Shown here one piece after another: positions 1 through 50,984 of a stretch of DNA of 50,984 bases; positions within the stretch are counted from its first letter, which is position 1, and every line of letters begins with the position of its first letter. This stretch comes from a phage: the sequence record NC_100129.1. One strand, written 5' to 3'. The position numbers and the translations under genes are program-made. The notes under the pieces are model-generated. The model had not been told where the DNA came from. It searched no databases and saw nothing but the letters and a program-made list of their open reading frames with translations.

Positions 1-360
1 GTTTTTTGCGTTCGCAATACATTGAAAAACAGCGCGGAAACATGCCGCCCTGAAACGCGAACACGCGCGAACAAAATAAACAGCTTCTGTTTGCTGACGC
101 CACCAGGACGAGGCGAGAGGGCAACTACTTTCTATACACCCCGCCACACATGATTAATCACACACGCAATCAATCGAAAAACCTGGTAAACGCATATCAC
201 ACTAACCAATTTAACAGTTAAGCAACTTATTCCGATTATTCTTTGAGCGTGGAATAACTGGAATAATGCACCAGGCATGGAATAGCACTTTTTGTTAAAA
301 CCGAATCATTCTGATCGGGTACATTACACACATCGAAACAAACCGCTCAGGAGATAGCAA
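1..360. other. non-coding leader region upstream of early plus-strand genes
   Basis: No ORF; contains CGCGAAC repeats and first dyad motif copy. Confidence 0.55.
282..300 (+). promoter_or_regulatory. dyad motif copy (atAGCACTTTTTGTTAAAA)
   Basis: Exact copy of recurrent motif; TACATT 20 nt downstream; upstream of first early gene. Confidence 0.6.
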
Positions 361-3944: not shown

Positions 3945-4000
3945 GCCCGACCTTGAGTCGGGCATAATGCGTTTCAACGAAAACAACTGGAGAAAATCAA

Positions 4001-4672: not shown

Positions 4673-6256
4673 ATGAATTTTTCATTTGAAACAAGTCAGT
4701 TATCACCGAAACAAATCATTGAAACCGCCGAATCTCAAGGTATTTCCCCTGTTCGTGTATCCATTCAGGCCAACGGATACCGCCAATCGTCAAGCTATTG
4801 GGGACAGGTGGAAGATATTAACGGCGGTAACGACCGCTACCCTGTCATTTCACTTGGGAATGATGTTGATGTAGTTGGTAAGCTGGCGCGCAATCTTGCG
4901 AGATCTGTTCAATTCCCTGAATCATCGGCCTACATGCACTTTATCGGATGTATTTCTGCCGCTATGCTTGGTCGATTCACAGTTGACTACCACGGAACCG
5001 ATCAGCCGACCGCGCTTTACGTTGTGACAAGCCAGCCTCCGTCGGCAGGTAAATCCGCGATTAACAGTCTGGCTATTGCGCCTATGGTTGCAGAAGTTGA
5101 GCGCATCAACGAGCAACGCAAGAAGGAACGGAAAAAGATACAGGCAAAACTTGCCGGACTACTAAAGGAGATGAAAAGCGAACGCTCCGGCGCAGATATG
5201 GAGATTCTATATCAAGAAAAAGAAGATCTGGAAGAAAAACTAAGCAAACTTTGCGATGTTGTTTTCCCTGTCTCCGACACCACACCAGAGGGATTAGCAA
5301 AGATAAATAACAGACAAGGAAACTTCGCGGTTATTTCTGATGAAGCAACCAGTATTAACAGTCTGCTTGGCCTGACTTACGCGAATAGCGAGCGCAAAAC
5401 TAACAGCGAACTTGTGTTAAAAGCATGGGATCACGGCCATGTTTCTATCGCCCGTTCTAATGCAGACAATAACATGAGTTTTTTTGCGCTTGGATGTATG
5501 AGTGTTATCGCCCAGGATGAAACTATTAATGGCATCATGGATGCAGGATCTCGTGGCATCGGTGTAAGCGAGCGTTTTCTACTGGTGCGCGAACAGCCGT
5601 TAATCGGTACGCGTGTATTTGTTGATGAGAATGGTGATTCAACTTACGAACCAGTAGACGGTGAATTGAAAGCGCAATACTTTCAGTTGGTGCATAACAT
5701 TATGAGCGAAATTAACGTTTCTCTGAAAGTTAGCCGTTCTGCAATGCGCGTGCTGAACATTGCACGCCAGGATATGGAACCGCATCTTGCCGACGGCGGA
5801 AAGTTTTCGCATACGATGCTACGCGGTGCGCTGGGTAAAATGGATAAGCAGGTGATCCGCATTGCTGCCGTTCTGCATGTGATACGCAATTGGTTTAATC
5901 CTGCTGGATACCCGCAAAAGTCTAGAGAGATTGACGTTGACACGATGCAAGAAGCCTTGCTGATGTTCCATGAATTGAGCAAAACGTATATCAGCGCGGC
6001 GAACGCGTCCGGCTATGCTGGTGATGATGCCGAGATGTCAAAACTGATTGAGTTAATCACCCGCCACGGTAAGGCAAATAAAGGCGTATTGAATGTCCGC
6101 GCTTTGTATGAGGCAGCACGCAAGGTAAAACCTTTCCTGGGGCAAGCTGGCGTGATGAAGCGCATAGAATCGCAACTTCTTCCGATGCTTGAGCAAAAAA
6201 ACTACGTTTGTGTTATTAATGGTGTTATTTTTGTGAATCCTGTGTTAATGGGGTAA
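4673..6256 (+). CDS. putative P-loop NTPase, replication-associated (527 aa)
   Basis: Deviant Walker A SQPPSAGKS and Walker B-like AVISDEA; large early gene; family assignment uncertain. Confidence 0.45.
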   Translation: MNFSFETSQLSPKQIIETAESQGISPVRVSIQANGYRQSSSYWGQVEDINGGNDRYPVISLGNDVDVVGKLARNLARSVQFPESSAYMHFIGCISAAMLGRFTVDYHGTDQPTALYVVTSQPPSAGKSAINSLAIAPMVAEVERINEQRKKERKKIQAKLAGLLKEMKSERSGADMEILYQEKEDLEEKLSKLCDVVFPVSDTTPEGLAKINNRQGNFAVISDEATSINSLLGLTYANSERKTNSELVLKAWDHGHVSIARSNADNNMSFFALGCMSVIAQDETINGIMDAGSRGIGVSERFLLVREQPLIGTRVFVDENGDSTYEPVDGELKAQYFQLVHNIMSEINVSLKVSRSAMRVLNIARQDMEPHLADGGKFSHTMLRGALGKMDKQVIRIAAVLHVIRNWFNPAGYPQKSREIDVDTMQEALLMFHELSKTYISAANASGYAGDDAEMSKLIELITRHGKANKGVLNVRALYEAARKVKPFLGQAGVMKRIESQLLPMLEQKNYVCVINGVIFVNPVLMG

Positions 6257-6788: not shown

Positions 6789-6844
6789 GCCCGGCTTATA
6801 GTCGGGTATATTTGTTTCATCGAAACGAATATGAGGAAAACAAA

Positions 6845-10097: not shown

Positions 10098-10147
10098 TTC
10101 CTCATGTTCGTTTCGATGAAATAATTATGCCCGACAAAATGCCGGGC

Positions 10148-13733: not shown

Positions 13734-14210
13734 ATGAAAGAAAAGCGAATCGCGGCCTATACTGGTGAGATTGACAAGCGAACATTGAACGGCAACAACG
13801 GAACGCGACGCGGCAAGGACAAGAAGCCACGCAAGCCGCGCACCGGATATTACATACTGAAAGAAGAAGTAAAAGCCGGACTGACCGCTCGCCTTGATAT
13901 TCTTCTGGAGTATTTCGGAGGTGTGGCAAATATGGCTCGTCGATTGGGAGTATCCCAGCAAACTGTAAATATGTGGCGCAAGCGCGGGATGATTTCAGCG
14001 ATGGGCGCACAACGCGTGCATAATGACTACAAATATAATGGCTGTAAAGGCTATCGCGCATCATTCTGTCGCCCGGATCTAAAATTCGACTCAAACGGTA
14101 AACCGCTTGTTACACGTTGCGAACGTCGTGAGATGTTGAGAGTGGTAACGATGCGCGATTATGAACCTGGCGGAATATTCTACAAAGAACCAAAAAGCAC
14201 AAATAGCTAA
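13734..14210 (+). CDS. HTH DNA-binding protein (Cro/YdaS-like), putative transcriptional regulator
   Basis: HTH GGVANMARRLGVSQQTVNMWRKRGMIS; basic N-terminal region. Confidence 0.6.
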   Translation: MKEKRIAAYTGEIDKRTLNGNNGTRRGKDKKPRKPRTGYYILKEEVKAGLTARLDILLEYFGGVANMARRLGVSQQTVNMWRKRGMISAMGAQRVHNDYKYNGCKGYRASFCRPDLKFDSNGKPLVTRCERREMLRVVTMRDYEPGGIFYKEPKSTNS

Positions 14211-14267
14211 AATTAATTGCCTGGCGTGGTTTATCATTGCCAGGCTTTTTCTTGTATGAGGTTTACA

Positions 14268-15179
14268 ATGCACTACGACAAAGACGAAGTTTTACCGCGT
14301 ATGCTGGGAATGTGGCAAACTGCATTAATGAAACTATGCAATGCGCCTCAATCTTTCTTTAATGGCAAGCATCAACCGTGCCTGTATTGTGGTGGCAAAG
14401 ACCGCGCTCGTTGGACTAACCAACTCGCAAAGAAAGGTGATGGCGGCAATATCTGCAACGTATGCGGTAACGATAGCGGGATCGGGTTGTTTATGCGATT
14501 GCGCGGGGAAAGCTATAGCGAAGCAATTAACACGCTGGGCGACTGGCTCAATCTCGTTCCGGTCGAAGTGGTGGCAAAGGCTAACAAGATAGCGTCGCGC
14601 TCGTCCGGCTACAATTTCGGGAAGCAGGCCAGCCATGAATGCTGTGAAAGAGTAATGGCAAAGACGCTTAAATTTGATCGCACTCCTTTAAGCGTATTTG
14701 AAGGAATCTACCCGCCTGATGATGGTCATTACGATTGCGGAGTTAAGGATGGGCGATACATTCACGCGCTTCCGTGCCGACTTGTTCACGAAGACGGCGT
14801 GGATGATGAGATGTGCAATATTCTCTTTATCACAGAGGAAGGCGATAAATCATTTCTGGCAAAGGATTACACGCGCGGATCGGTTGTTGTAACTGGTAGC
14901 ACAGATAAGACGATCTATTTGTGCACTGACTGGGTAAATGCTCAGCATGTGCACATTGCGACGGGGCAAGAAGTATGGACGTGCTACAATAACTACAATC
15001 TTGAGATGGTTGCCCACAGATACAAAGGAAATCGAAAGATGCGCGTCGTATGCCATAAAGATGATCGGGATGTAATAATCGCCGCCGATGAAAGAAACCT
15101 TGATGTTATGCTGCCGATTGGTGGAAACTTCAAAAATGGCATTGAGAAAAAACTTTACAAGCCTGAATCGCTTTTATAA
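14268..15179 (+). CDS. DNA primase with zinc-ribbon (P4-alpha-like Zn-binding domain)
   Basis: CLYCGGKDRARW...CNVCGNDSGIGLFM matches primase zinc-ribbon motif; GAGG RBS at start; terminator downstream. Confidence 0.65.
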   Translation: MHYDKDEVLPRMLGMWQTALMKLCNAPQSFFNGKHQPCLYCGGKDRARWTNQLAKKGDGGNICNVCGNDSGIGLFMRLRGESYSEAINTLGDWLNLVPVEVVAKANKIASRSSGYNFGKQASHECCERVMAKTLKFDRTPLSVFEGIYPPDDGHYDCGVKDGRYIHALPCRLVHEDGVDDEMCNILFITEEGDKSFLAKDYTRGSVVVTGSTDKTIYLCTDWVNAQHVHIATGQEVWTCYNNYNLEMVAHRYKGNRKMRVVCHKDDRDVIIAADERNLDVMLPIGGNFKNGIEKKLYKPESLL

Positions 15180-15243: not shown

Positions 15244-15274
15244 GCCTGCAAAACTGCTATTCTCAATGTTGTCA

Positions 15275-15291
15275 TTAGCAAAAAGTGCTAT
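15275..15291 (-). promoter_or_regulatory. dyad motif copy, variant (TTAGCAAAAAGTGCTAT)
   Basis: About 12 nt upstream of RBS of tail fibre gene, after primase terminator. Confidence 0.5.
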
Positions 15292-15308: not shown

Positions 15309-17264
15309 ATGGCAATTTATCGCAAAGGTCAAGCGTCAATGGACGCTCAAGGCTATATAACTGGCTACGGGACGAACTGGCGTGAGCAGTTAACGCTGAT
15401 CCGTTCCGGCGCAACCATTATTTTTCTGACTCAGCCGCTACAGGCCGCAGTTATCACCGAAGTGGTCAACGATACTAGCATTCGAGCAATCACCACTGGT
15501 GGTGCTGTTGTTCCCCGTTCAGACTACATAATCTTGCTTCATGACTCGTTAACTGTTGATGGCCTGGCGCAAGACGTAGCGGAAACATTGCGCTACTACA
15601 TGGGGAAAGAGTCGGAGCTTGCTGGATTTATTGAGATCATCAAGGATTTTGATTGGGATAAGCTACAGAAGATCCAAGAAGACGTAAAGACAAATGCTGA
15701 CGCAGCAGCAGCAAGCCAGCAGGCAGCTAAAACCAGCGAGAATAACGCGAAGACAAGCGCAACAAATGCAGCGAATAGCAAGAAAGGCGCTGATACTGCA
15801 AAGGCTGCCGCTGAATCCGCGCGCGACGCTGCAAACACTGCAAAGACTGGCGCTGAAGCAGCAAAGTCTGGCGCTGAATCCGCGCGTGACGCTGCGAACA
15901 CCGCAAAGGCAGGCGCTGAAAGTGCGCGAGATAAAGCGGAGGAATACGCAAAGCAGGCCGCAGAACCTTACAAAGACTTATTGCAACCGTTGCCGGACGT
16001 GTGGATACCGTTTAATGATTCGCTTGATATGATTACGGGATTCTCGCCGTCATACAAAAAGATTGTCATAGGTGATGATGAGATCACAATGCCAGGCGAC
16101 AAGATTGTTAAATTTAAACGAGCATCAACCGCCACTTACATTAATAAGTCTGGCGTGCTTACTAATGCTGCTATTGATGAACCTAGATTTGAAAAGGATG
16201 GTCTTCTCATCGAGGGGCAAAGAACAAACCTTCTTATAAATAGCACCAATCCTTCAAAATGGAACAAGTCATCAAACATGGTATTAAACCAATCAGGAGT
16301 TGATGATTTCGGTTTTTCATTTGGCAAGTTTACATTGAAGCCAGAAATGGTAGGGCAAACATCGGCTATTAACATAGTTACAGTATCTGGTAATAAGGGT
16401 TTTGATGTTACTGGTGAAGAAAAAAGAGTAACAATCTCATGCAGAGTAAAGGGAGGTAAAGGAAACATAAGGTGCAGGCTTAGATTTGAAAATTATAATG
16501 ATAGTGGATATACCTTTTTGGGTGATGCTTATCTCGGACTTGAGGACTTGTCAATAGAAAAAACAGGCAGTGCTGCAAACAGGATAACAGCAAGAGCAGT
16601 AAGAGATGAATCAAGCAAATGGATATTTTTTGAGGCCACGATCACAGCATTAGAACAGGAAGGCATGATTGGTGCAATGGTGCAATATGCACCTGAAAAG
16701 GGGGCTGCAACCACTGCCGACGATTACATTTATATTGCAACTCCACAAGTTGAGGGAGGATCTTGTGCCTCTTCTTTCATAATTACAGAAGGAGATCCAG
16801 TAACACGGGCAAGCGATATGGTAAACATACAATCAATTAACAACCTTTCCATTAGACCTTTTACCGTATTATGTGAAGTTGGCATAAACTGGACTACTCC
16901 GCCAAATATTGCTCCTAGAATATTTGATGTTGGAGGCCATAAAAGTGATGAGAATTATTTGTCTTTAGGTTTTGTTTCAACTGGTAAATTGTCTGCAAAC
17001 GTTGGCATGACTCAGCCTCAAATTGCTGTGAGTGGCAATAAATTCATTGCAGGATTGAGAGCAAAATCAGATCTGTCTGTAAATGCTTTCTTTAATGGAA
17101 ACTATACAACCAATCCTAACGGTAAGGTTTTTGGTGTAACTGCAACATCTTTAAGATTTGGTGGACAAACAACTTCTGGATCAAGGCACTTGTTTGGTCA
17201 TGTAAGGAATTTCAGGATGTGGCATAAGGAGCTAACAGATCACCAAATGGGGGAAATTGTATAA
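15309..17264 (+). CDS. tail fibre protein with Ala-rich repeat shaft
   Basis: Long Ala/Ser/Lys-rich quasi-repeats typical of fibre shafts, contains a 63-bp tandem DNA repeat; AGGAG RBS. Confidence 0.7.
   Translation: MAIYRKGQASMDAQGYITGYGTNWREQLTLIRSGATIIFLTQPLQAAVITEVVNDTSIRAITTGGAVVPRSDYIILLHDSLTVDGLAQDVAETLRYYMGKESELAGFIEIIKDFDWDKLQKIQEDVKTNADAAAASQQAAKTSENNAKTSATNAANSKKGADTAKAAAESARDAANTAKTGAEAAKSGAESARDAANTAKAGAESARDKAEEYAKQAAEPYKDLLQPLPDVWIPFNDSLDMITGFSPSYKKIVIGDDEITMPGDKIVKFKRASTATYINKSGVLTNAAIDEPRFEKDGLLIEGQRTNLLINSTNPSKWNKSSNMVLNQSGVDDFGFSFGKFTLKPEMVGQTSAINIVTVSGNKGFDVTGEEKRVTISCRVKGGKGNIRCRLRFENYNDSGYTFLGDAYLGLEDLSIEKTGSAANRITARAVRDESSKWIFFEATITALEQEGMIGAMVQYAPEKGAATTADDYIYIATPQVEGGSCASSFIITEGDPVTRASDMVNIQSINNLSIRPFTVLCEVGINWTTPPNIAPRIFDVGGHKSDENYLSLGFVSTGKLSANVGMTQPQIAVSGNKFIAGLRAKSDLSVNAFFNGNYTTNPNGKVFGVTATSLRFGGQTTSGSRHLFGHVRNFRMWHKELTDHQMGEIV
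15810..15935 (+). repeat. tandem in-frame 63-bp repeat (2 copies) inside tail fibre gene
   Basis: GCTGAATCCGCGCG(C/T)GACGCTGC(A/G)AACAC.GCAAAG... at 15810 and again at 15873; encodes AESARDAANTAK.GAE twice. Confidence 0.8.
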
Positions 17265-19500: not shown

Positions 19501-20562
19501 TTAAATCAGATACTGCTTGAACTGTCGGCGCACAAATTCAGGCGTATCCAAGCAAACTTCCGGCTCACCGTTTGCATACGCAGGCCATACGTCATGATGC
19601 TGGCACATAGCAAACTGTTGGATCACGCTAACATACTGGACTCGGCCTATCTTCAATTGCTCGCTGTTCATGCGGAAAGCCAACGGCAAATAAGGCTCTT
19701 TCTTCTCCTGGGCTAACAGGCGCATAACTACAGGGCGCTTCTCGTCTGGATATGCCTTCCTGAATAAATCATGTTGCAGCGCCATTTTCAGATAATAGCC
19801 GTGGTTGTAAGCCAGTCGCATAAACTCCATCGGATTTGCGCTCATTGTGGTTTTGTAGTCAGTTATAACAACCGCTTCTGGATAGATAATATCGCGGCAA
19901 ATTGGCTGACCTTTTTCGTCATAACCATCAATTAGCGTGGCGGTGACGTTTTTCACTACGTCAACGTGATCACATCGAACTTTAACTTTTACGCCGTTGA
20001 TTTCGCCGAATAACGACAATTCACGCTGTGCCGTCGGGCTGTTCATGCAGGCGTTATGTTCCGGTATGGATTCCAGAACCTGGCGCATTGCCACGCAAGC
20101 ATCGTAATCTTTCGCGTCGATTAACTGTACGCCGTCGGCTCTGGCCTGGCTTTCTGCGATCATGTCGATTAACCACATGATGTTAAGGTCTTCGCCACAA
20201 TCAACCATCATTTTGATAAGGTCGGGGTAAGCCTTTCCGCTTGTCCCTTTCAGGCCAAAAGATTTCAGCTTTGCAGCCAATGCCGTTTGGCTTGTGATCA
20301 ACTCTTTGAAGTCTTCCGGCGCTGGCGCACGGCGGTAAGTTTTATCAAATAGCTCCTTGCTTTCGAAGTTGGTATGCGACTGCGTACCGAAAACGAGCGC
20401 CTTGCTCTTATCGTCGCGCGGCTTGAACTTCCACGCAGCAGGGCAAGTGCTGTAAATCTCTGCCAGACTTGAACCGCTAACATATTCAGCCGTCCATGCT
20501 TCTGGATCGTGATAAAGCTCGTTGCTCATTTCTGCGCTGGTGTAAGCCATAAATTTATTCAT
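19501..20562 (-). CDS. PD-(D/E)XK recombination exonuclease (RecE/YqaJ-like)
   Basis: VITDYKTT motif; first gene of exonuclease-Erf-SSB module. Confidence 0.65.
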   Translation of the reverse strand: MNKFMAYTSAEMSNELYHDPEAWTAEYVSGSSLAEIYSTCPAAWKFKPRDDKSKALVFGTQSHTNFESKELFDKTYRRAPAPEDFKELITSQTALAAKLKSFGLKGTSGKAYPDLIKMMVDCGEDLNIMWLIDMIAESQARADGVQLIDAKDYDACVAMRQVLESIPEHNACMNSPTAQRELSLFGEINGVKVKVRCDHVDVVKNVTATLIDGYDEKGQPICRDIIYPEAVVITDYKTTMSANPMEFMRLAYNHGYYLKMALQHDLFRKAYPDEKRPVVMRLLAQEKKEPYLPLAFRMNSEQLKIGRVQYVSVIQQFAMCQHHDVWPAYANGEPEVCLDTPEFVRRQFKQYLI

Positions 20563-21073
20563 GATTAGCCCTCATTGGTTGGTATGCCTTCATTTTAGCT
20601 ATTTGATGCGTTTAGTCAATAGGTGATTTGTTTTTTCTGTTTTCTAAACGCTTCTTTTGGGCTTAAGAACAAAATCTGATTATAAGTGATTGAATATCAG
20701 GTTGTTATTTTTCTGTTCTCGCGTTCGCGTATCTGCTCAGCTTTATACATACATATGCAATACCCAGTGAGCATCTGTAATTACATAAATCAATACACTC
20801 ACCAAACATGCTACACACCACAACCCAATGAAACACAGAGAACAAATAAAAACAAATATAGATACATAGATAAATAAACTCTTTATTTTTTATGTATATA
20901 GATGATTTTACTGTCTATTGTTTGTCCAATTTGTGTTTAAGTTTTGCGCTAAAATTAAGGAGGTGTGAATTTGATAACAAGCGAGAACAGAAAAAACAAA
21001 TAGCACTTTTTGCTAAACTCGATGTTCAAGATCTTGTATAGTTGGAAACAACAACAACTAAGGAGATACAAAG
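20563..21073. other. large non-coding divergent control region (candidate ori/regulatory)
   Basis: ~510 bp without credible ORF; G-poor A/C-rich top strand; GTTCGCG repeat and AT-rich palindromic element ACATAGATAAATAAACTCTTTATTTT. Confidence 0.6.
21000..21017 (+). promoter_or_regulatory. dyad motif copy, variant (ATAGCACTTTTTGCTAAA)
   Basis: Upstream of lipoprotein cassette; TATAGT ~25 nt downstream. Confidence 0.55.
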
Positions 21074-21343
21074 ATGAAAAAATTAATCGCAGTTATCGCC
21101 ACCGTAGCCGCTCTGACCGGATGCGCAGCGTCGCCTACTGGCAGCTTCAAAAAGATCGATTGCACGGCAAAATTTAACGTTAAAACATTCCCTGTTAACG
21201 GATTCCATGAAGTCAAAATTAATGCAGTACGCGAAAACAGATTCAGCCAAAAGCAATACAGGTTGAGCGTTGACAATAAAGAAGTTAAATTTATCAACCG
21301 CTGGCAAAATGAAAGTAAATTTATTGATTTGAGGTGTAATTAA
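21074..21343 (+). CDS. small outer-membrane lipoprotein, candidate Cor-like superinfection-exclusion protein
   Basis: Signal peptide plus lipobox LTGC; 89 aa; own upstream dyad motif; position next to J-like gene. Confidence 0.5.
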   Translation: MKKLIAVIATVAALTGCAASPTGSFKKIDCTAKFNVKTFPVNGFHEVKINAVRENRFSQKQYRLSVDNKEVKFINRWQNESKFIDLRCN

Positions 21344-32026: not shown

Positions 32027-32046
32027 ATAGCATTTTTTGTTAAAAG
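32027..32046 (+). promoter_or_regulatory. dyad motif copy, variant (ATAGCATTTTTTGTTAAAAG)
   Basis: Between major tail gene terminator and chaperone G start; ~12 nt from G RBS on the minus strand. Confidence 0.5.
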
Positions 32047-35779: not shown

Positions 35780-35799
35780 ATAGCACTTTTTGTTAAAGG
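35780..35799 (+). promoter_or_regulatory. dyad motif copy
   Basis: Between decoration-like gene and terminator/major capsid gene. Confidence 0.5.
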
Positions 35800-50613: not shown

Positions 50614-50984
50614 GGTTAGCCTCCTGTTGACCAGTTGCCGCCCATTATAAGTGCCTTTTAATTAGTGTCAATGTTTATTTTGTCCGTATAACGTTCGCGT
50701 CCTGTTCGCGTTGCCGACGTTTTGAGATAATCGCTACATAACCACATGATTTGCAATAAGTTTTTGCCGCTTGTTTTCTTTCTGTTCGCGCTGTTAGCGT
50801 AATATCGCAATAAAAGTATATATACATACTCATTCCACCAGGCGCGCAACTATCCATATATATACCAACAAAGCGACACCGCAACCATCACATACCACAC
50901 TAACAACGCTAACAAGAAATAACACATAAATATATACATAAATAAATATTCTTTATTTTCAATGTATTATAAGGGATTTATTTT
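50614..50984. other. large non-coding control region at window end (continues at 1-360 if circular/permuted)
   Basis: Three GTTCGCG repeats (50693, 50704, 50784); inverted copies at 56-62 and 66-72; A/C-rich tract and second copy of AT-rich element near 50935. Confidence 0.6.

Follow-up and report, generated by a model that had tools for sequence, protein, structure and literature searches.

The non-coding region between positions 20563 and 21073 of the window (the whole 50,984-nt stretch of phage DNA analyzed here, record NC_100129.1) contains an element, 20702–20998, that has a paralogue in the other large non-coding region of the genome, and the two copies (A and B) are best explained, from their sequence, as paralogous copies of a cis-acting, origin-like element. 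More specifically, we give an even chance to the proposal that 20702–20998 is one of two origin-like elements per genome of the type used by self-loading helicases such as SaPI Rep and P4 alpha, a proposal built on sequence anatomy, protein modelling and analogy. Copy A may then be a second origin or, by analogy with P4, a helper site like crr.

The window is the genome of a T1-like coliphage (Drexlerviridae, Tempevirinae, Warwickvirus). Region A (20563–21073) shares 99.8% identity with phage BEBK14 and 99.2% with MatMar, the DUF3987 helicase protein is identical to a protein of phage Jahat_MG145, and the gene order is that of T1 in reverse. Its two ends join into a single non-coding region, so the window is apparently a complete genome in circularly permuted form. 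The description of region A as a divergent non-coding region in an earlier sequence-only reading was confirmed: it is bounded by the ATG of the exonuclease VIII gene on the minus strand and by a lipoprotein gene on the plus strand, and contains no ORF conserved in relatives. ORFs of 30–63 aa occur in 20563–21073, with neither position nor frame kept in relatives, among which region A varies by indels whose lengths are not divisible by three. On these grounds of position and frame, a coding role for the 63-aa and 49-aa ORFs and for the small ORFs annotated in MatMar was rejected, as was one for a 10-codon ORF with a strong ribosome-binding site (20957–21003), which is lineage-specific and unconserved in relatives. 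Four distant loci related through the neighbor gene DUF7174 were also returned and were left out of the comparison. From left to right, region A and its borders are laid out as follows.

19501–20562, minus strand: exonuclease VIII gene (Pfam DUF3799/PDDEXK)
20592–20619, minus strand: P_exo, sigma-70 early promoter of exonuclease VIII (promoter scan, 10/12 matches)
20626–20644, plus strand: outer-left repeat ATTTGTTTTTTCTGTTTTC, adjoining the P_exo −35 on its upstream side
20702–20729, plus strand: left repeat cluster TTGTTATTTTTCTGTTCTCGCGTTCGCG, the left end of the element common to region B, aligning to 50772–50802
20756–20866, plus strand: A/C-rich, G-poor tract, second most extreme 111-nt window of the genome, no conserved ORF
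20830–20859, plus strand: inner-left repeat cluster GAAACACAGAGAACAAATAAAAACAAATAT in AACA orientation, abutting the AT core
20843–20902, no strand assigned: AT-rich core with near-palindrome, candidate DNA unwinding element (duplex energy, skew inversion)
20910–20940, plus strand: inner-right flank, T/G-rich, with TGTT-orientation repeats (CTATTGTTTGTCC, TTTGTGTTTAAG)
20973–21001, plus strand: outer-right repeat cluster GATAACAAGCGAGAACAGAAAAAACAAAT, an inverted copy of the left clusters
21000–21042, plus strand: predicted marbox-type promoter for the lipoprotein gene (consensus match)
21060–21076, plus strand: Shine-Dalgarno sequence AAGGAG and ATG of the lipoprotein gene (direct sequence reading; kept in relatives)
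from 21074, plus strand: lipoprotein gene, an 89-aa ORF with lipobox (MKKLIAVIATVAALTGC)

P_exo consists of a −35 TTGACT (20619–20614), a 16-nt spacer and a −10 TAAAAT (20597–20592); its −35 block is invariant in 11 relatives, the equivalent site in T1 reads TTGACT-16-TATAAT, and its counterpart in phage TLS is promoter P51. The block TTTGTTTTTTCTGTT within the outer-left repeat is also invariant in 11 relatives. On the opposite side, the marbox-type promoter is composed of the box ATAGCACTTTTTGCTAAAC (21000–21018), an 18-nt spacer and a −10 TATAGT (21037–21042), with the box and GTGTATAGTT both invariant in 11 relatives. Since both flanking genes have conserved proximal promoters of their own, the central 300 nt are not needed as a simple promoter. 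Between the two promoters, 20626–20644 and 20983–21001 form a 19-nt inverted repeat (95% complementary), 20708–20722 and 20981–20995 form a 15-nt perfect inverted repeat, and the inner-left cluster is a direct repeat of 20986–21002. The internal direct repeats of region A pair 20832–20858 with 20986–21002 and AATTAAGGAG with AACTAAGGAG. The GTTCGCG repeat that had been singled out in region A is present as one exact copy (20723) beside GTTCTCG (20713), but the genome-wide count of this heptamer is at chance level (11 vs 8.8 expected); six of the 11 copies lie in the two non-coding regions, five of these in region B.

The G-poor, A/C-rich tract previously noticed at 20770–20880 (A58 C25 G8 T20) is real and among the two most extreme 111-nt windows genome-wide. 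The two most G-poor plus-strand windows of this length start at 50853 (5 G) and 20783 (6 G), compared with a mean of 23.9 (sd 4.7), and the two richest in A+C start at 50835 (85/111) and 20758 (83/111), compared with a mean of 54.9 (sd 6.3); the other extreme tract thus occupies 50835–50963. Among relatives, the tract differs in sequence and length in its left half, and the block AAACAYAGATAACAAGAAAAAACAAATAT is its best conserved stretch. The AT-rich near-palindrome was also found as described, with 18-nt arms (20856–20873 and 20886–20903) that are 78% complementary. By nearest-neighbor duplex energy, AT core A is the second least stable 60-bp stretch of the genome (−59.7 kcal/mol per 60 bp; genome mean −82.7, sd 5.2), the least stable being the copy in region B, which starts at 50926. 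Both AT cores reach about −59.6 kcal/mol, the third least stable stretch only −66.0 kcal/mol, and the AT cores are the two least stable stretches in five genomes (the window, T1, SECphi27, brachmannus and A121), at approximately 4.4 sd and well separated from the third. Both the G/C and the A/T skew switch sign at the AT core. The cumulative GC skew of the whole window mostly tracks gene orientation and is therefore not independent evidence.

The short repeats also change orientation at the AT core. The left flanks of Tempevirinae elements contain three to five AACA and no TGTT (A+C 0.75–0.82) and the right flanks one to three TGTT and zero to two AACA (A+C 0.32–0.48), a switch that is confounded with the composition skew and involves a degenerate repeat unit spaced by 8–11 bp; the pattern is weaker in T1 than in the Tempevirinae elements. 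The motif YTGTTH is about threefold enriched relative to dinucleotide-preserving shuffles in both regions of four Tempevirinae genomes, these repeats having variable 3′ ends and irregular 8–11 bp spacing, unlike crisp iterons. The T1 motif differs (TGTTACA/TGTAACA, with six of six genomic copies inside regions A and B), so that the repeats are lineage-specific. No periodicity was found in the helical phasing of AA or AAA in the region, and AACA and ACA gave only a weak signal at 9–11 nt (z ~3). Direct repeats of the host regulators ArcA, OmpR, PhoP, TorR and CpxR were considered and none was adopted, given the irregular 8–11 bp spacing and varying 3′ halves. Neither copy in the window contains a DnaA box (TTWTNCACA), and each has one GATC and no GATC cluster. 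As to the nucleoid-protein site suggested earlier, the IHF consensus WATCAANNNNTTR occurs exactly at the homologous core position in 7 of 13 elements from relatives, and with one mismatch in both copies of the window (AATAAAGAGTTTA and TTTCAATGTATTA).

The similar element pointed out earlier near 50935–50970 was confirmed by alignment and is far longer than had been noticed: 20702–20998 aligns over ~297 nt with 50771–50984 plus 1–82, giving 68% identity in a local alignment, with a score of 51 compared with 12.3 ± 1.4 (maximum 18) in 200 shuffles. The alignment stops at 20998, the right end of the common element. The features of region B are as follows.

50644–50671, minus strand: P_L(B), a perfect consensus sigma-70 promoter (TTGACA-16-TATAAT) of a long leftward operon (scan, 12/12 matches)
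50771–50984, plus strand: left part of element B, with repeat cluster, A/C-rich tract and AT core (local alignment)
1–82, plus strand: right part of element B, across the window ends, with five AACA-orientation repeats including CGCGAAC twice

The right end of the window falls 14 nt to the right of the element B palindrome. P_L(B) has its counterpart in TLS promoter P01, and copy B is located at the head of the operon encoding the DUF3987 helicase. Elements A and B are both retained in T1 and throughout Tempevirinae, and a Klebsiella Webervirus also has an element of the region B type. The sequence-only reading had named lack of conservation in relatives and of a skew inflection as grounds for abandoning its proposal; the elements are conserved in relatives and the skew inverts at the core.

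Three proteins encoded in the window could act on these elements.

4673–6256, plus strand: DUF3987 protein, candidate initiator, whose model shows an MCM-like AAA+ helicase plus a C-terminal winged helix
13734–14210, plus strand: Cro/YdaS-like helix-turn-helix protein, alternative candidate repeat binder (Pfam YdaS_toxin and P22_Cro, below curated cut-offs)
14217–15179, plus strand: primase, homologous to the P4 alpha primase domain (Pfam Zn_Ribbon_Prim)

Residues 13–263 of P4 alpha matched the primase with an E value of 2e-9 (tblastn), and the Cro/YdaS-like protein gave weak matches to a Cro structure (E 0.002–0.005). The same helicase together with a Zn-ribbon primase occurs in three further lineages, L022 (53% identity), L023 (64%) and L024 (36%), and in all three the least stable 60 bp of the locus fall in the non-coding divergent stretch that precedes the helicase operon. 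L022 is a phage with a different gene order, in which the core of the 21.6-kb locus falls in a 1-kb divergent gap and is surrounded by TGTT(T)CGCC copies, with six of the nine locus copies of the 7-mer TTCGCCC found there. L023 is a Klebsiella Webervirus, in which the repeats around the core are TGTTTGGTAA and GAAACAC. In L024, GGGGAAGG repeats flank the core, which is also bordered by GGGTTA and, inverted on the opposite side, by TAACCC. The element is at most 0.8 kb upstream of the helicase in L022 and L024. As these three lineages repeat the same plan, the architecture moves with the helicase–primase pair, but each time with a different repeat sequence. Within the helicase, divergence is more rapid at the winged-helix end than in the ATPase core (e.g. 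42% vs 71% identity). A travelling architecture and a fast-evolving winged helix are the expected look of an origin–initiator pair, although this is still a correlation, and the association between winged helix and repeat covers few lineages, between which the Cro-like protein also changes. In L022 the G-poor arm has the opposite polarity with respect to the core, so that the strand asymmetry has no uniform mechanistic reading, and the idea of the helicase tracking the G-poor strand was dropped for the same reason.

Under the origin proposal, the DUF3987 helicase would recognize the TGTT-type repeats via its C-terminal winged helix, self-load between the oppositely oriented repeats on either side of the AT-rich core (20843–20902) and melt this least stable duplex, after which the P4-alpha-like primase would prime synthesis. 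The G-poor, A/C-rich tract would form the left arm of this arrangement, and the outer inverted repeats (20626–20644, 20702–20729 and 20973–21001), just upstream of the divergent promoters, may couple the element to transcription. The absence of DnaA boxes and GATC clusters fits a phage-encoded initiator, and a DnaA-dependent or lambda-type origin finds no support in the same observation; the TLS authors likewise found no lambda-type iterons. The suggestion of a replication origin or unwinding element made from the sequence alone has thus gained indirect support from the least stable duplex in five genomes, the opposed repeats, the MCM-like helicase and the recurrence in three lineages. Some findings count against it: the helicase gene is adjacent to neither copy, with copy B located 4.3 kb upstream and copy A 14.4 kb away, downstream of the helicase stop codon, and the elements sit in divergent promoter regions, where operators and AT-rich upstream DNA could mimic the picture.

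The main rival reading is that region A is a transcription control region only, which we consider unlikely. The TGTT-type repeats would be operators or activator sites timing the divergent early promoters, the regulator being a phage protein (e.g. the Cro/YdaS-like protein at 13734–14210) or a host one, and the AT core and A-rich tracts would be UP-like, bent or H-NS/IHF-bound DNA, or a further promoter. Copies A and B are indeed both located between divergent promoters, the outer repeats directly precede both the P_exo −35 and the marbox promoter, two GTTCGCG repeats in region B precede the −35 of the consensus promoter by ~20–40 bp, and TLS has just three sigma-70 promoters, one of which drives the helix-turn-helix protein. 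Another promoter, weak and leftward (ATAACA-18-TATAAT, 20708–20679), overlaps the left cluster, but its TATAAT (20684–20679) is unconserved in relatives. Inspection and scanning revealed no conserved sigma-70 promoter in the AT core on either strand, and a sigma-70 promoter in the core or at the TATACATA border was rejected as candidate for want of a consistent −35/−10 geometry across copies. Furthermore, operators alone leave unexplained why these are the two least stable segments in five genomes and why the architecture follows an MCM-like helicase into non-syntenic phages. The origin and transcription-control functions are compatible and can coexist, origins often being located within promoter regions.

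Other explanations are considerably less probable. Rho utilization (rut) sites are C-rich and G-poor in composition, and the tract, C-rich and G-poor over ~110 nt, is rut-like in this respect, so that a non-coding RNA or leader, such as a Rho-loading site or a protein-sequestering RNA, could be envisaged; we regard it as very unlikely. Compared with shuffles, the 311-nt element has a folding z of −3.5, but the opposite strand, at −3.0, folds about equally well, pointing to DNA-level dyad symmetry rather than to a strand-specific RNA. No conserved promoter feeds the tract, its left half varies in sequence and length between relatives, and no Rfam 15 family reached its gathering score, the sole match with E up to 1 being a chance AT-rich one (22 bits vs a threshold of 100). 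T1-like phages package from pac as a processive headful series. We attach very little credence to region A being a pac recognition or cleavage site, although its paralogue is in the region holding the T1 genome end, and the AT core of copy B coincides with or adjoins the cut ends of the window and of at least one related record (BEC3); assembly breaks at extremely AT-rich DNA are a common artefact. The left end of T1 (record position 1) maps ~213 bp beyond the region B core, at approximately window position 200, in a segment that is outside the common element and has no counterpart in region A, leaving the earlier idea of a packaging site in region A unsupported. Headful packaging from a pac site is reported in the TLS paper. 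It is just as improbable that region A is a decaying functionless duplicate, a relic of region B or of a promoter-leader unit: the internal direct repeats suggest past tandem duplication and the 10-codon ORF with its strong ribosome-binding site (20957–21003) is unconserved, but both copies have been retained from T1 to Tempevirinae with their extreme composition and instability despite ~30% divergence, and a relic would not be expected to keep its second rank in instability in each genome.

The promoter at 21000–21042 carries one copy of the Drexlerviridae 21-nt repeat aaATAGCACnnnTTGnTAAAA, whose function in T1-like phages was listed as an open question in the TLS paper. This repeat fits the marbox of E. 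coli, to which MarA, SoxS and Rob bind. For the classical marbox consensus, which we take to be AYnGCACnnWnnRYYAAAY, the window contains three exact matches and 18 more with one mismatch, compared with 0.0 and 0.8 in shuffles. The ChIP-derived consensus gcannwwntgnnaaa (PMC12052159) has 16–20 exact matches in each of five complete or near-complete Drexlerviridae genomes, T1 included, where ~0.5 is expected, and 13 in a 21.6-kb Klebsiella Webervirus locus, with no match in L022, L024 or P4. Of the 24 repeat copies in the window, 21 point the same way as the genes they precede, and a −10-like hexamer (TATAAT, CATAAT, TACATT, TATAGT and similar) follows the box after 18–19 nt, which centers the box near −40 in forward class II geometry. 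The box at 21000–21018 is an exact match to both consensus forms in forward orientation, and its center near −40, counted from a start inferred from the −10 hexamer, falls within the class II marbox range (−36 to −55); this copy is predicted to drive the lipoprotein gene. The phage box is therefore like E. coli class II MarA/SoxS/Rob promoters in both consensus forms, orientation, center and −10 distance, and unlike E. coli marbox promoters in that the boxes occur in a virulent phage, 16–20 per genome, as the main promoter type. The presence of marbox copies alongside three consensus sigma-70 promoters suggests a two-tier program with a few early promoters read by the host polymerase and a large set of marbox promoters. 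Candidate readers of the marbox are the host regulators Rob, MarA and SoxS or a phage protein; no MarA/SoxS homologue encoded in the window was detected by tblastn or phmmer, and no paper tying MarA, SoxS or Rob to T1-like phages was found in the literature.

T1 belongs to the seven classic T phages and is notorious as a contaminant in laboratories. In recent T1-like genome papers no origin could be found, and our literature survey likewise found neither an origin of T1-like phages nor transcript maps. The present analysis names two 300-bp candidate origins and a candidate initiator, as well as a candidate host factor family for ~20 phage promoters. If the origin proposal is true, a replication strategy so far associated chiefly with satellites and islands would also operate in a widespread virulent coliphage, through an MCM-like self-loading helicase that has its own origin, and engineers of BASEL-type Drexlerviridae would gain defined cis elements to keep or exploit. 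If the promoters need Rob, MarA or SoxS, phage yield would be tied to the host stress state and to antibiotic-resistance regulators. The combined proposal, that Drexlerviridae have both paired paralogous origins fired by an MCM-like helicase and 16–20 marbox promoters dependent on Rob/MarA/SoxS or a phage mimic, is put forward tentatively, as somewhat doubtful in its entirety. Were it true, both wirings would be previously unrecognized, most phage transcription units would depend on stress regulators, and phage gene expression would be coupled to bile salts and to oxidative or antibiotic stress in the gut.

Among known replication systems, SaPI Rep is both initiator and helicase, acting through a C-terminal winged helix, at an origin made of short iterons with at least two per side of an AT-rich center in opposite directions (PMC9371898). 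The phage resembles the SaPI Rep systems (the MCM-like Rep of SaPIbov1 and SaPI2, and also SCCmec Cch) in the modelled MCM-clade AAA+ helicase with C-terminal winged helix, the opposed short repeats (degenerate in this phage) around an AT-rich center, a separate or fused primase and the lack of DnaA boxes, but the SaPI-type location of the origin beside the initiator gene is not found in this phage. P4 has two separate cis sites, ori and crr, which are bound by the alpha protein and share CTGTTCACC repeats (as read from the annotated P4 record), 9–11 bp apart and in both orientations. P4 and the phage have in common a CTGTTC core in the repeats, A-rich tracts such as AAAAACAAACAG and homologous primase domains. 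A weight matrix derived from the P4 iterons did not single out regions A and B, and identity of the phage repeats with P4 iterons was rejected on this result, the CTGTTC core alone being shared. P4 alpha combines primase, helicase and C-terminal winged helix, functions found on separate proteins in the phage, in which no sequence similarity to the P4 helicase and DNA-binding domain was detected; P4 ori is also not the least stable P4 segment, unlike the AT cores of the phage. SPP1 of Bacillus differs in its initiator family, G38P working with a DnaB-type helicase and loader. It is a pac-type siphovirus with two distant origins, oriL and oriR, which have the same initiator-binding repeats beside AT-rich DNA.

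Comparison with the consensus for the binding site of the Escherichia coli regulators MarA, SoxS and Rob (the marbox) showed that the 21-nt repeat of T1-like phages is an exact match to it, with a -10-like hexamer lying 18-19 nt 3' of the repeat, i.e. in class II geometry. Exact copies numbered 16-20 per Drexlerviridae genome against ~0.5 expected, while none occurred in two phages outside this family (L022 and L024) or in the satellite phage P4. A literature search found no published link between the MarA/SoxS/Rob marbox and this repeat. The copies are spread over the whole window; examples are as follows, together with marbox-like copies opposed to the surrounding genes and hairpins found in promoter spacers.

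282-300, 1501, 2001, 3925 and 6769, + strand: 21-nt repeat, marbox match
21000-21018, + strand: 21-nt repeat within the non-coding stretch, marbox match
10167, 11206, 13723, 19500, 40417 and 44743, - strand: 21-nt repeat, marbox match
46088, 47047, 48239, 49426 and 49890, - strand: 21-nt repeat, marbox match
32027-32045 and 35780-35798, + strand, and 15291..15273, - strand: gene-opposed marbox-like copies (n=3)
3945-3963, 6789-6807 and 10129-10147, among others: marbox to -10 spacers, hairpin-bearing

Two of the three gene-opposed copies flank the region of the major capsid gene; all three could promote antisense transcription or have a different role. In many marbox promoters a GC-rich hairpin is present between the marbox and the -10. 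When the complementary strand is read, a T-rich run (GTTTTAACAAAAAG) comes after each hairpin, and the two together would thus resemble an intrinsic terminator for antisense transcription. A sequence like the 21-nt repeat (reverse complement GGATAGCACGGATTGCTAAAA) was also seen at 9660-9680 of L022, a more distant phage whose genome organisation differs from that of T1; it lies upstream of the helicase operon, points away from it and is not an exact marbox match. Separately, a tandem 63-nt repeat (84% identity; 15780-15905, + strand), encoding an alanine- and lysine-rich repeat, was observed within a 659-aa tail-fibre-like ORF.

The 50984/1 junction cuts the window inside the element of region B, its second copy, 14 nt right of the AT-rich palindrome, and at least one related record (BEC3) likewise ends at this AT core. 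These ends may be assembly breaks in extremely AT-rich DNA rather than a physical end. Region B further contains a GC-richer segment (~85-280) lacking a counterpart in region A, the copy in the non-coding stretch, and holding a block (GCAAGAGG...TTTCnCTATCnCCC) conserved between the window and region B of L018, L019, L020 and T1. Since T1 coordinates place the physical genome end near window position 200, this segment would be the better pac candidate.

Strong sigma-70 promoters were few in the window and included the following.

50644-50671, - strand: perfect sigma-70 consensus promoter (12/12), heading the leftward operon of 28 kb
20592-20619, - strand: P_exo, strong sigma-70 promoter of exonuclease VIII

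This scarcity agrees with the three sigma-70 promoters reported for the T1-like phage TLS.
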